Of a stretch of 64,000 nt of DNA, positions 17,653 through 20,119 are shown in pieces. Origin of the DNA: Minisyncoccota bacterium. Its GTDB lineage: Bacteria > Patescibacteriota > Minisyncoccia > Phycocordibacterales > PALSA-1337. Below the pieces are notes generated by a model, which saw only the letters and a program-made list of their open reading frames with translations, was not told the origin of the DNA and did not search any database. The DNA lies in assembly GCA_041665325.1 (NCBI GenBank), contig JBAYJB010000001.1:233286-297285 (forward strand), given 5' to 3'. The translations under genes were made by a program, and so were the position numbers. Each line of letters begins with the position of its first letter. The first letter of the stretch is position 1.

Positions 17653-18393
17653 ATGAGATTTCCTGGGAACACCCAAGGTGGATTCACTCTGATAGAGCTC
17701 CTGGTGGTCATCTCCATCATCGGCGTCCTAGCCAGCATCACCCTCGTGGCCCTAAGCAGCACGCGAGGCAAAGCCAAGATCGCCAGTTTCATGGTCCAGG
17801 ACCAGACCATGTACCAAGCCATGGGAGCCTCGGCCACCGGTAGTTGGGACTTCAACGAGGGTGCCGGGACGGTGATAACTGATTCTTCATTTTCAGGCAA
17901 CAACGGCTCCATCACCGGCGCGGTCTGGACCAACCAGACTTTCAACGGGGCTGGATATGCCGTCACTTTCAACGGCACCAATCCAGTATCATTCTCCAAC
18001 ATGAGGAACCTGCCGACGACGGCTATGACCGTGACGGCCTGGGTGCGGACTACCGCGTATCAGGACTTCGCCAATATCGTGGTAAAGAACTGGGGTGTTG
18101 AGGGTGGCTGGATACTGTTCAATCATACCGGCGGGACATGCTTCGGCGTCTTTCACAGCGGCTGGCAATACAATTCATGCGTTAGCAATCCCTCATTAAA
18201 TACTTGGCACTTCCTCATGGGAGTATACGATGGCAGCAAAGTAGCATTGTATGTCGATGGAGTCAGAGCGCCTCCCTACCTCCTAGCTGGCCAAATACTC
18301 GACTCAAATCCGACGACATCGTTCGGGATCGGAACAGGAAATATAAGCGGGGAGATAGATTCAGTCCGCCTCTACACTGATTATCCTCACTAG
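17653..18393 (+). CDS. type IV pilin/pseudopilin with C-terminal LamG (concanavalin A-like) domain
   Basis: Class III signal peptide and N-methylation site (G|FTLIELLVVISIIGVL). The C-terminal ~180 aa resemble a LamG/lectin-like jelly-roll domain. A GATATAAT -10 lies about 10 nt upstream. Confidence 0.65.
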   Translation: MRFPGNTQGGFTLIELLVVISIIGVLASITLVALSSTRGKAKIASFMVQDQTMYQAMGASATGSWDFNEGAGTVITDSSFSGNNGSITGAVWTNQTFNGAGYAVTFNGTNPVSFSNMRNLPTTAMTVTAWVRTTAYQDFANIVVKNWGVEGGWILFNHTGGTCFGVFHSGWQYNSCVSNPSLNTWHFLMGVYDGSKVALYVDGVRAPPYLLAGQILDSNPTTSFGIGTGNISGEIDSVRLYTDYPH

Positions 18394-18407
18394 GACTAAT
18401 GTGTCAT

Positions 18408-19052
18408 TTAGATCGTACCCGGAGCTTCATAGACCCTGTCAGCAAATACCACGAGCCGGAGCGAATAGCTCTCCTCCGCTTCAGACCAGACCCCTTCACA
18501 GGTGATAAGGTTGAGGTGTGCTTCCTCGTCACTAGAGTTGAATACAACAGAAGCATCAGCTTTAGGATCATACCTCCGGCTCTCGCGCACTACGAAGGTA
18601 ACAGTCATCCCTGTGTCGTCTTCCACATACAGCAGGTCTCCCTTCTTCAATCTTGAGAGATCGTCAAATACGCTTGATACGCCATCCTTCCAGCCAAAAT
18701 GGCCTACGATGATCGCATTCCCTATCTCTCCTGGATGAGGGCTCCCGTCGAACCAAGCAGCATTGGAAGGCCTTTCGGGGACACCCACGGACCCCTGGGG
18801 TGTCAGACCGACAGACTCAATCTCGGCATCGACACCTATCTTCGGAATCTTGAGACGGACTGGGTGTTTGAAAATGGCTTCTGTGGTAGAGATCGTGAGG
18901 CTCTCCAATATCGGAACATCAAAAAGAGCGCCGGGGATGCGCGAAACGCTTCCCCTGAAAATGACCAGGGAAAGCGTAGCGCTAACAAGAACAAGAAGGA
19001 GTACCAGGAATATTTGTCTTGATAAGAATGCTGACATGTTAGTCAATCCCAC
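18408..19052 (-). CDS. sortase (class E/F-like cysteine transpeptidase)
   Basis: N-terminal TM anchor, His in IIVGHFGW and catalytic TLxTC motif (LNLITCEG). Confidence 0.75.
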   Translation of the reverse strand: MGLTNMSAFLSRQIFLVLLLVLVSATLSLVIFRGSVSRIPGALFDVPILESLTISTTEAIFKHPVRLKIPKIGVDAEIESVGLTPQGSVGVPERPSNAAWFDGSPHPGEIGNAIIVGHFGWKDGVSSVFDDLSRLKKGDLLYVEDDTGMTVTFVVRESRRYDPKADASVVFNSSDEEAHLNLITCEGVWSEAEESYSLRLVVFADRVYEAPGTI

Positions 19053-19066
19053 AAGACACCACCCGA

Positions 19067-20119
19067 CTAGACCCGGCTCTTCTTCAGGGCCAGGATTGTG
19101 GCGGAAGAGATCAGGACGAGGAGACCGGAGAACACTGCAAGACCAAAGAGTGTGTTGTCTGCACGAGGAGGAAACCCTGTATTCGGAAGAGAAGGAACAA
19201 TAGGGCTAGCAACGGCTAGAGTCGTGGAGATGGGGGCATAGATACCCACCCCGCCGGCATAACCGGTAAAACTGCCGGTCGAGTGTGATGTCCCCCCTGT
19301 AGTCGATGAGGGTGTAGGGGAAGGAGTGACGACTACCACGGGAACAGGAACTGAGACCGTATTGCCGATCAGGGTGACATCAGTCTGGCCCAAAGCCCGA
19401 CCGTTCAAGATGGCACCGCTCTGCCCAGCGATCGTTGAAGCTCCAGGACCACCGAGGATGTTACCCTCGAAGGTCGAACCCGGTTCAAGCGTTGTTGTAC
19501 CAGCAACTACCCAGAAGATATTAGAAGCTTGCGCACCACCAGTGAGAAGGATCTTCTTGGCGGCTGATATGTCTAGAGTGCCAGGAATCTGGAATATCCA
19601 AACATCACTAGCGCTACCCGAGAGAGTGACGTCATCCGTGATGATCACATTACCAGGACCGCTGAAGAAATAGACGCCTGTGACCAGAGTCAAACCAGCC
19701 AAATCTCCGGCGCCGGCGTCAGTGACATCGACTGCACGCGAGTTGCCATCCGTATAAGCGGCCTCCATAGCACTCACTGCGGTAGTGAGAGTTGCCGGAG
19801 TCGGAGCTGTGTAATCAGCGGCATAAGCCTTACCCGTTATGAGAGCTGAGGTCGAAAATGTACCAGAACCATCGAGTGTAAAGCCGAAACCGGTCATATT
19901 GGCATCGAAAGCCGGGCTGATACCGATATCTCCGGTGATCGCCGTGACTCCCGTCGTGGTGATCGCTGTCTTCGCTAGGATCACGAAATTGGCCGCCGAC
20001 AAGAGATTAATCGTAGCGGGACTAGCTGCAGACACGGCCATCGGAGCGACTAGGGCGATGACAAAAGAGGCTATGAATGCGGCTGTTATCGAGCCCTTAT
20101 TGAAATTGAACATTTTCAT
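19067..20119 (-). CDS. DUF3494 (ice-binding-like) surface protein with LPNTG cell-wall sorting signal
   Basis: Signal peptide. The N-terminal domain matches the DUF3494/IBP family (LSAANFVILAKTAITTTGVTAITGDIGISPA). Then a Pro/Thr linker. C-terminus is SLPNTG + hydrophobic helix + KKSRV, a sortase substrate. Confidence 0.7.
   Translation of the reverse strand: MKMFNFNKGSITAAFIASFVIALVAPMAVSAASPATINLLSAANFVILAKTAITTTGVTAITGDIGISPAFDANMTGFGFTLDGSGTFSTSALITGKAYAADYTAPTPATLTTAVSAMEAAYTDGNSRAVDVTDAGAGDLAGLTLVTGVYFFSGPGNVIITDDVTLSGSASDVWIFQIPGTLDISAAKKILLTGGAQASNIFWVVAGTTTLEPGSTFEGNILGGPGASTIAGQSGAILNGRALGQTDVTLIGNTVSVPVPVVVVTPSPTPSSTTGGTSHSTGSFTGYAGGVGIYAPISTTLAVASPIVPSLPNTGFPPRADNTLFGLAVFSGLLVLISSATILALKKSRV

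Follow-up and report, generated by a model that had tools for sequence, protein, structure and literature searches.

The stretch analysed here is a 64-kb window of contig JBAYJB010000001.1 from a Minisyncoccota bacterium, and its focal region (17653-20119) encodes a sortase together with a DUF3494 (ice-binding-like) protein that carries an LPNTG sorting signal. This sortase-DUF3494 pair is a conserved cassette across many lineages of the candidate phyla radiation (CPR; Patescibacteria). The two genes probably constitute an operon that displays a wall-anchored DUF3494 protein by means of its own sortase, from an extracytoplasmic function (ECF)-type promoter, the displayed protein having an adhesin-like role. 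The cassette and its putative regulators are laid out as follows (aa, amino acids; nt, nucleotides):

18408-19052 (-): class F-like sortase, 214 aa from a GTG start at 19052 (Pfam PF04203, NCBIfam class_F_sortase)
19067-20119 (-): precursor of the DUF3494 (ice-binding-like) surface protein, 350 aa (Pfam PF11999)
20184-20209 (-): ECF-type promoter-like motif TGTAAT-N15-ACGGC, ending 64 nt upstream of the DUF3494 start codon
20205-20819 (-): stand-alone PAS-domain protein of 204 aa whose C-terminal tail is coiled-coil-like (weak Pfam PAS_8 and PAS_4 matches)
20828-20854 (-): second motif copy, TGTAAT-N16-ACGGC, ending 8 nt upstream of the PAS gene start
21020-21045 (+): third motif copy, TGTAAT-N15-ACGGC, ending 12 nt upstream of the sigma gene start
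21058-21570 (+): sigma-70 factor of the ECF type (170 aa), oriented divergently from the PAS, DUF3494 and sortase genes (NCBIfam TIGR02937)

The sortase gene lies on the same strand as the DUF3494 gene and starts 14 nt downstream of its stop codon if the GTG is used, or 29 nt downstream if translation begins at ATG 19037, as in the public gene call (209 aa). There is one sortase gene, one DUF3494 gene and one LPXTG-type signal (that of the DUF3494 protein) in the 64 kb, and the genes around the locus are housekeeping genes (ThrRS, DnaE, RNase HII, RF-1, L31, LepA and MurJ). Named best homologues come almost entirely from metagenome-assembled genomes (MAGs) of Candidatus Paceibacterota, Minisyncoccia or other Patescibacteria. 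A protein identical to the sortase is named 'class F sortase' in an NCBI record, and the NCBI name for close relatives of the DUF3494 protein (the cargo) is 'ice-binding family protein'. An earlier note on this stretch had pointed to three genes, these two and a type IV pilin gene, and all three are present where it placed them. It had read the first two as a complete sortase-substrate pair, which agrees with a Pfam Sortase match (1e-23) and with a cargo, one gene upstream, that ends in SLPNTG, a helix and KKSRV. The enzyme that it called a TLxTC sortase does belong to the sortase family, but the strict motif does not hold, as the active site reads NLITC.

A sortase profile search of GTDB representatives (one genome per species) gave 312 relatives, and the best 80 of these were examined with 10-kb flanks. 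Nearly all of the 80 loci carry CPR labels, with a few other labels, and the lineages include Adler-, Uhr-, Falkow-, Komeili-, Buchanan-, Kaiser-, Terry- and Yanofskybacteria, Peregrinibacteria and Saccharimonadales. Sixty-seven loci have at least 1.5 kb of sequence upstream of the sortase and could be evaluated. In 51 of the 67, the open reading frame (ORF) just upstream of the sortase, in the same orientation, encodes a DUF3494 protein with a sorting signal; in 60, a DUF3494 gene lies within 3.5 kb. The nine additional loci are accounted for by frameshifted genes, a variant LSNAG motif, an intervening gene or, at locus L074, a single ORF. The association is also seen from the side of the cargo: a sortase gene lies immediately downstream of all six signal-bearing DUF3494 homologues that were looked up, and none lies downstream of the one looked-up homologue of the type ending in a PG_binding_1 domain.

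Strict tripartite sorting signals within 4 kb of a sortase were found in 72 ORFs, 59 of which encode DUF3494 proteins. Further than 4 kb from a sortase, no genuine signal was found in 609,747 bp of CPR DNA taken from the flanks of these sortase-centred loci. Six pattern matches in this DNA were rejected: five are the C-termini of transporter-like proteins of approximately 770 aa (IPLAAG...) and one is in a spurious frame. Genes with sorting signals are thus essentially confined to the neighbourhood of the sortase. Because substrates are not scattered and the sortase is not class A (see below), the pair reads as dedicated.

The sortase is placed in its superfamily by Pfam PF04203 (Sortase; 1e-23, 83.4 bits against a cut-off of 26.6). 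In the prediction, a membrane helix near the N-terminus (aa 7-36) is joined by a disordered linker (aa 40-57) to the catalytic barrel (aa 62-207). The active-site stretch is HLNLITCEG, and the catalytic residues His118 (nt 18699-18701), Cys185 (18498-18500) and Arg199 (18456-18458) are invariant among 31 sortase homologues. The class was assigned from the NCBIfam class models, with which the protein scores 121.9 bits for class F, 37 for E, 27 for C, 23 for GN and 21 for D; the class A models gave no match at E ≤ 0.01. As class F is the best class by far and yet its score is under the curated cut-off (NF033748, 166 bits), the enzyme is called class F-like; on these profile scores it is a class F-like and not a class A sortase.

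Some of the loci contain other sortase arrangements. At L074, a 775-aa ORF (5845-8172, minus strand) scores 148 bits with the DUF3494 hidden Markov model (HMM) and 279 bits with the sortase HMM, and the catalytic region of the sortase forms its end; this could be a natural substrate-enzyme fusion or could result from a lost stop codon or an assembly error. A second, longer type of sortase, approximately 370 aa in length and scoring approximately 220 bits with the same HMM, is encoded near the first sortase in L003, L034, L043, L072, L078 and L080. In L078 and L080, its gene comes directly after that of a small DUF7507 protein whose signal is LPDTG or FPETG, and these two genes would be a second sortase-substrate pair in some CPR genomes.

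The cargo precursor can be divided into the following predicted parts:

nt 20027-20119 (aa 1-31): signal peptide, with the cleavage site ...AVSA|AS
nt 19349-20026 (aa 32-257): beta-helix domain, 226 residues
nt 19190-19348 (aa 258-310): disordered linker rich in Pro, Thr, Ser and Gly, about 55 residues
nt 19175-19189 (aa 311-315): LPNTG
nt 19070-19174 (aa 316-350): spacer, hydrophobic helix and KKSRV tail

The DUF3494 assignment of the earlier note was confirmed by both profile and fold. The cargo matches Pfam PF11999 (Ice_binding) at 2e-59, with 201 bits against a cut-off of 28.7. Its AlphaFold model has a predicted local distance difference test (pLDDT) score of 85.5, exceeding 90 over roughly residues 31-260. 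In the model, a triangular beta-helix, flanked by a long alpha-helix, stands between a signal-peptide helix and a disordered linker that leads to a membrane helix at the C-terminus. Foldseek comparison of the domain with the type 1 ice-binding protein (IBP-1) structures 9lhn, 7ddb and 3vn3 gave a template modelling (TM) score of 0.98 and a root-mean-square deviation (rmsd) of 0.9-1.0 Å. At 156.5 bits, the cargo stays below the 400-bit cut-off of the IBP_CFB equivalog model (NF045625).

The C-terminus of the cargo reads VPSLPNTGFPPR, followed by a hydrophobic stretch and then KKSRV. All of the elements of an LPXTG sorting signal are found in the protein: the LPNTG motif, a predicted helix (323-349), the KKSRV end and the signal peptide. 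Alignment of 110 CPR homologues gave an extended consensus, [LF]-P-N-[TA]-G-[FLI]-x-P with P at -2 (108/110), and the cargo signal P-S-LPNTG-F-P-P matches it exactly. Judging from this alignment, the predicted sorting signal is extended and family-specific. Among the CPR DUF3494 proteins, there is also a subgroup (P0018, P0032, P0037, P0041-P0045, P0059, P0063, P0089 and P0095; locus L088) with LPKTG and a short conserved tail, FPPQE..WY..LL..ILNLFK, without the long hydrophobic helix and basic end. One member, P0045, has a sortase gene immediately downstream, and the tail may be a variant sorting signal.

The C-termini of the 120 best cargo homologues fall into several types, with approximately 50 ending in [LF]PxTG, approximately 45 in PG_binding_1 and three in PEP-CTERM. 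Two CPR groups can be distinguished by their domains. Members of a conserved, IBP-like group have a median identity of 57% to the cargo domain, usually end in PG_binding_1 and are often encoded approximately 2 kb upstream of the sortase. Members of a divergent group have a median identity of 34%, usually carry SpaA_2 and/or DUF7507 stalk domains and an LPXTG signal, and directly adjoin the sortase. In the cargo of this window and its nearest relatives, the IBP-like domain type is fused directly to the sorting signal without stalk domains. From these sequences, the predicted anchor varies among paralogues, being either covalent (LPXTG) or non-covalent (PG_binding_1), and attachment of the beta-helix to the cell envelope would be the common denominator of the homologues.

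The regulatory genes upstream of the cassette were absent from the earlier note. The PAS gene is immediately upstream of the DUF3494 gene and co-oriented with it. Its product has 3310 homologues, the named ones of which are nearly all from CPR and several of which are named 'PAS domain-containing protein'; no match was found in PDB or PHROG. The best PAS homologues are approximately 70% identical, which makes this protein more conserved than the sortase (approximately 61%) or the cargo. With 49.3 bits, the divergently encoded sigma factor exceeds the TIGR02937 sigma70-ECF cut-off of 42.9; it comes nearest to SigM, SigZ and SigW, and Pfam matches in relatives are to Sigma70_r2 and Sigma70_r4_2. 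PAS genes paired with a divergent ECF sigma gene occur in L028, L051, L087, L091 and L092. When sigma-PAS pairs were reached from two PAS homologues, one had a DUF3494-sortase pair downstream and the other had PG_binding_1 proteins.

The motif TGTAAT-N15-17-ACGGC was found by aligning the regions upstream of DUF3494 genes in relatives with an orthologous sigma factor. Three matches were observed in the 64-kb window against 0.08 expected, with a maximum of one in any of 100 shuffled sequences, and all three are in this locus and correctly oriented with respect to the DUF3494, PAS and sigma genes. The motif precedes sigma and DUF3494 genes in L005, L028, L051, L059 and L081-L087, and it stands before sigma orthologues in the same arrangement in L005, L051, L059, L081-L084 and L087. 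It resembles the SigX/SigW-type consensus of Bacillus. These data suggest an ECF sigma regulon that includes the cassette and that, from the motif copy 12 nt before the sigma gene, would be autoregulated; because the motif is absent from other CPR loci, the putative regulon is limited to this Paceibacteria subclade. The PAS protein may be a partner or sensor of the sigma factor. In the Bacillus ECF regulons (SigW, SigX, SigM), a similarly small two-domain sigma factor and a similar motif (TGTAAC/TGAAAC-N16-17-CGxx) are found, with copies before the sigma gene itself and before genes for envelope proteins. The locus described here differs in having no membrane anti-sigma gene after the sigma gene and in encoding a conserved soluble PAS protein divergently. 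A Rfam scan of 16000-22000 found two tRNAs only and no leader RNA.

By analogy with characterized sortase systems, the cargo precursor would leave the cytoplasm through Sec, its C-terminal helix keeping it in the membrane. The sortase would then use Cys185 to cleave LPNTG between Thr and Gly, and the resulting acyl-enzyme would be resolved by the amine of a peptidoglycan precursor. This would leave the beta-helix covalently attached to the cell wall, exposed at the surface on a tether of approximately 55 residues. Display of the cargo may be turned on by the ECF sigma factor, autoregulated and possibly modulated by the PAS protein, as in envelope-stress regulons. Once displayed, the cargo would act through a flat face of its beta-helix as a surface binding module or adhesin, and would not be a dedicated antifreeze protein.

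The least secure step in this scheme is the function of the displayed domain. A binding or adhesion module is favoured for several reasons. Multiple alternative wall anchors are in use, and stalk domains are found in relatives. The Ice_binding domain is listed among the adhesive domains of fibrillar adhesins (PMC8286594), and DUF3494 has been described as involved in surface adhesion besides ice binding (PMC12337378). The cassette also occurs in MAGs named for aquifer, spring and lake sources. An anchored DUF3494 head at the cell surface is already known from Shewanella frigidimarina SfIBP_1, the ice adhesins and the fibrillar adhesin-like proteins (Monzon et al. 2021, PMC8286594). With an Ice_binding domain only, the cargo itself falls outside the fibrillar adhesin-like definition of Monzon et al.; the relatives with SpaA_2 and DUF7507 stalks fall within it and have the same architecture of an adhesive head plus stalk. 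The cargo also differs from these proteins in having a disordered linker of approximately 55 residues in place of a stalk and in using LPXTG and a sortase, where those proteins have lipoprotein or type I secretion anchors. No description of a conserved dedicated sortase or of an ECF regulon was found for them.

Several points weigh against this interpretation of the locus. The subclade that yielded the promoter motif is small, and the remaining approximately 70 CPR loci lack the motif upstream of the cassette; a scan of 17400-21200 for generic sigma-70 promoters and intrinsic terminators gave counts no higher than in shuffled sequence. The sortase misses the class F cut-off, as given above. 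The census of signals away from sortases was drawn from the flanks of sortase-centred loci, and the part of the host genome examined is 64 kb, such that further sortases or distant substrates are possible. As to the role of the cargo, its domain is 57% identical to a crystallised protein deposited as ice-binding, and this domain type is better conserved than one would expect of an adhesin directed at variable hosts.

One alternative is that the cargo is a genuine ice-binding protein that, during freeze-thaw, shields the cell or fixes it to ice in the manner of bacterial ice adhesins, in which case the ECF sigma factor would respond to cold or envelope stress. The domain has the same fold as the DUF3494/IBP-1 proteins TisAFP, LeIBP, FfIBP, ColAFP and PDB 9lhn (TM 0.98, rmsd approximately 1 Å, 40-57% identity), and the likeness extends from end to end of the domain and takes in the long helix that runs beside the beta-helix. 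The highest identity, 57%, is to 9lhn, which was deposited as a Candidatus Cryosericum odellii ice-binding protein, and fungal, yeast and Flavobacterium antifreeze or ice-binding proteins are 40-49% identical. A literature search found no paper that combines Cryosericum with ice-binding. Some relatives are from MAGs named palsa, bog or SPRUCE, which we take to be from seasonally frozen peat. The gene tables of a cultured oral Saccharibacterium grown at 37 °C contain two sortases and no ice-binding/DUF3494 protein, which would at most favour this alternative mildly. However, the cassette is also found in MAGs named GW2011, RIFCSP, Zod, Lake Pavin and OW334, and we assume these to be from non-freezing habitats (GW2011 and RIFCSP from the Rifle aquifer, Zod from Zodletone spring, OW334 from borehole groundwater). 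Most sortase-linked DUF3494 domains are approximately 34% identical to the IBP-like type, and paralogues with several different wall anchors fit a general surface module. Whether a domain binds ice is not something its sequence can tell, and the cargo is called ice-binding-like here; it differs from the IBP-1 proteins in being fused to a wall-sorting signal, in being encoded with a sortase and in belonging to an organism group that is largely from groundwater. We consider genuine ice binding an unlikely but live alternative, given the 57% identity to a crystallised ice-binding protein.

The adhesin-like reading can be carried further, to a proposal that we make tentatively and regard as speculative. 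The DUF3494 beta-helix could have been the original cargo of a CPR-specific class F-like sortase, and nearly its only one, and could be the main covalent wall protein of environmental CPR bacteria, serving in attachment to hosts or particles rather than in ice binding. The polar antifreeze proteins would then be offshoots of a much larger family of surface binding modules, and Paceibacteria would have placed the display of this module under a previously undescribed switch composed of an ECF sigma factor and a PAS protein.

A second alternative concerns the enzyme: the sortase could be a general housekeeping enzyme with many substrates throughout the genome, its adjacency to DUF3494 being incidental. 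A class F sortase has been described as the housekeeping sortase of Cutibacterium acnes, and the 64 kb examined here can be set beside the contig of at least 305 kb from which the same sortase is on record. Three observations make this explanation improbable. First, the adjacency is kept in 51-60 of the 67 evaluable loci, which come from different CPR species. Second, no genuine sorting signal was found in the 610 kb of CPR sequence that lies beyond 4 kb of any sortase. Third, the adjacency of a sortase tracks the presence of a sorting signal on the DUF3494 homologue (6/6 against 0/1). The earlier note had proposed that a housekeeping class A enzyme, with many other LPXTG substrates, would speak against a dedicated locus; the enzyme scores as class F-like with no class A match in NCBIfam, 51 of the 67 CPR loci are paired, and no true signal was found in the 610 kb away from sortases.

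The dedicated arrangement has counterparts in the sortase-substrate pairs of Gram-positive bacteria (SrtB-IsdC, and class D, E and F sortases with neighbouring substrates). These have the same membrane-anchored Cys transpeptidase with a His-Cys-Arg triad and the same adjoining secreted protein with a motif, hydrophobic helix and basic tail, for which covalent linkage to peptidoglycan is predicted. The pair described here differs in its CPR host, in a class F-like sortase that is under the family cut-off, in its DUF3494 beta-helix cargo, in the extended signal P-x-[LF]PN[TA]G-[FLI]-x-P and, in this lineage, in the ECF-type promoter motif.

It is also conceivable, though very improbable, that the pair builds a sortase-polymerised fibre (a Gram-positive-type pilus) with the DUF3494 protein as subunit or tip. 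The nearest solved structures to the sortase, by both Foldseek and profile comparison with PDB, are class C pilus sortases, and partner proteins in relatives have SpaA_2 and DUF7507 stalks of the kind typical of pilins and fibrillar adhesins. However, all of the structural neighbours are sortases of at most 28% identity, and classes C, E, D and A score about alike by Foldseek, for which reason structure does not refine the class of the enzyme. Class A structures are 17-19% identical and rank below classes C, D and E, and no class F structure is among the matches. By profile, the class C score of 27 bits (cut-off 160) compares with 122 for class F. In the AlphaFold (AF2) model of the sortase (pLDDT 84), a membrane helix at the N-terminus is followed by a disordered tether and then by a sortase barrel of canonical form; the model ends there, and no helix lies C-terminal to the barrel. 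This modelled topology, with an N-terminal anchor only, argues against a class C pilus polymerase. In addition, the locus has a single sortase and a single substrate gene, and the substrate lacks any stalk or pilin-type domain.

The third gene of the focal region lies on the other side of the sortase and is preceded by a tRNA gene:

17541-17613: tRNA-Arg, preceding the pilin-LamG gene
17653-18393 (+): type IV pilin with a LamG/ConA-like globular domain, 246 aa (Pfam N_methyl, Laminin_G_3; TIGR02532)

The description of this protein in the earlier note as a pilin with a LamG globular part was correct. It matches PF07963 (N_methyl; 5e-8, 32.5 bits against 21.2) and TIGR02532 (33.2 against 16.3), which identify it as a type IV pilin, and also Laminin_G_3 (PF13385; 1e-16); the ORF starts MRFPGNTQGGFTLIELLVV and the N-terminus includes GFTLIELLVV. 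The gene had been placed divergently upstream of the pair. Instead, it is convergent with the sortase gene, with a stop-to-stop gap of 14 nt, and is downstream of the operon; the divergent upstream gene is that for the ECF sigma factor (21058-21570, plus strand).

A LamG-pilin is encoded at none of the 80 related sortase loci, within the 10-kb flanks, and any pilin-like ORF is found at five of them. Beside the sortase, the pilin-LamG gene occurs only in strains that are nearly identical (nucleotide identity 94-96%) and on one contig of 100% identity. It is absent beside the cassette in other relatives, among them the nearest ones that are not strains (L085, L086, L087, L088, L089 and L091). 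No type IV pilus machinery is encoded near it. That the pilin-LamG, sortase and DUF3494 genes form one dedicated adhesion locus is hardly credible and is largely refuted by synteny. In its favour are the 14-nt spacing, the retention of the arrangement in strains of 94-96% identity and the implication of lectin-like minor pilins in host binding by Saccharibacteria (PMC11623550); these are outweighed by the convergent orientation of the pilin gene, its own upstream region after a tRNA gene and its absence from the related loci listed above. Of the dedicated adhesion locus proposed in the earlier note, the sortase-DUF3494 pairing stands and the membership of the pilin does not; likewise, sortase and DUF3494 recur together across CPR genomes and the pilin-LamG does not recur with them. 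The adjacency looks incidental, and the gene is most likely an independent lectin-like pilin gene. Its product has the same prepilin N-terminus and ConA/LamG-like domain as the Saccharibacteria minor pilins PilX1 and PilX2 (PMC11623550), and differs in not being encoded near pilus machinery and in not being linked to the cassette in other genomes.

The window also contains a second type IV pilin-like gene, far from the first (59768-60256, minus strand; 162 aa, N-terminus GFTLIELLVV). At 15224-16312 (minus strand), a 362-aa protein rich in Tyr, Asn and Gln has two PKD domains and a C-terminal membrane helix and is kept in a sister strain. It has a weak match (E 0.0016, far below the cut-off) to the NCBIfam model of the CPR pilus protein PamR.

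The components belong to kinds that are already known (sortase-substrate pairs, DUF3494 proteins, lectin-like pilins and ECF regulons), and the single genes are routinely annotated. Within the library searched, no paper was found to mention DUF3494 together with sortase, and papers containing both 'ice-binding' and 'sortase' did so in unrelated contexts or only included Ice_binding in a list of adhesive domains. Both the conserved CPR cassette and its link to an ECF sigma factor and PAS protein appear to be undescribed. The locus joins two questions, the role of DUF3494 in organisms that never meet ice and the construction of the surface of cell-attached CPR bacteria: an IBP-like fold is the cargo most often found beside this sortase in the CPR loci examined, and in one lineage such a wall protein is tied to a recognisable regulator.

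A few other features of the window were recorded. A 685-nt segment (16855-17539) is absent from L081-L083, which are otherwise 94-99% identical around it. This segment holds an ORF (16914-17567, plus strand; 217 aa) whose end overlaps tRNA-Arg. The predicted protein has no match in Pfam, PHROG or PDB; a LAGLIDADG-like stretch, 'LLLGIYWGEGNK', was seen by eye, and the segment may be a mobile insertion of the homing-endonuclease type beside the tRNA gene. At 38124-40883 (minus strand), a 919-aa protein has HerA/DUF87 and type IV secretion coupling-protein (T4SS-DNA_transf, TrwB) matches. A domain often seen in phage tail fibres and typical of them, Peptidase_S74 (endosialidase chaperone), is present in the protein encoded at 5366-6196 (plus strand), and an HNH_3 endonuclease ORF at 8138-8656 (minus strand) overlaps tRNA-Leu (8099-8184).

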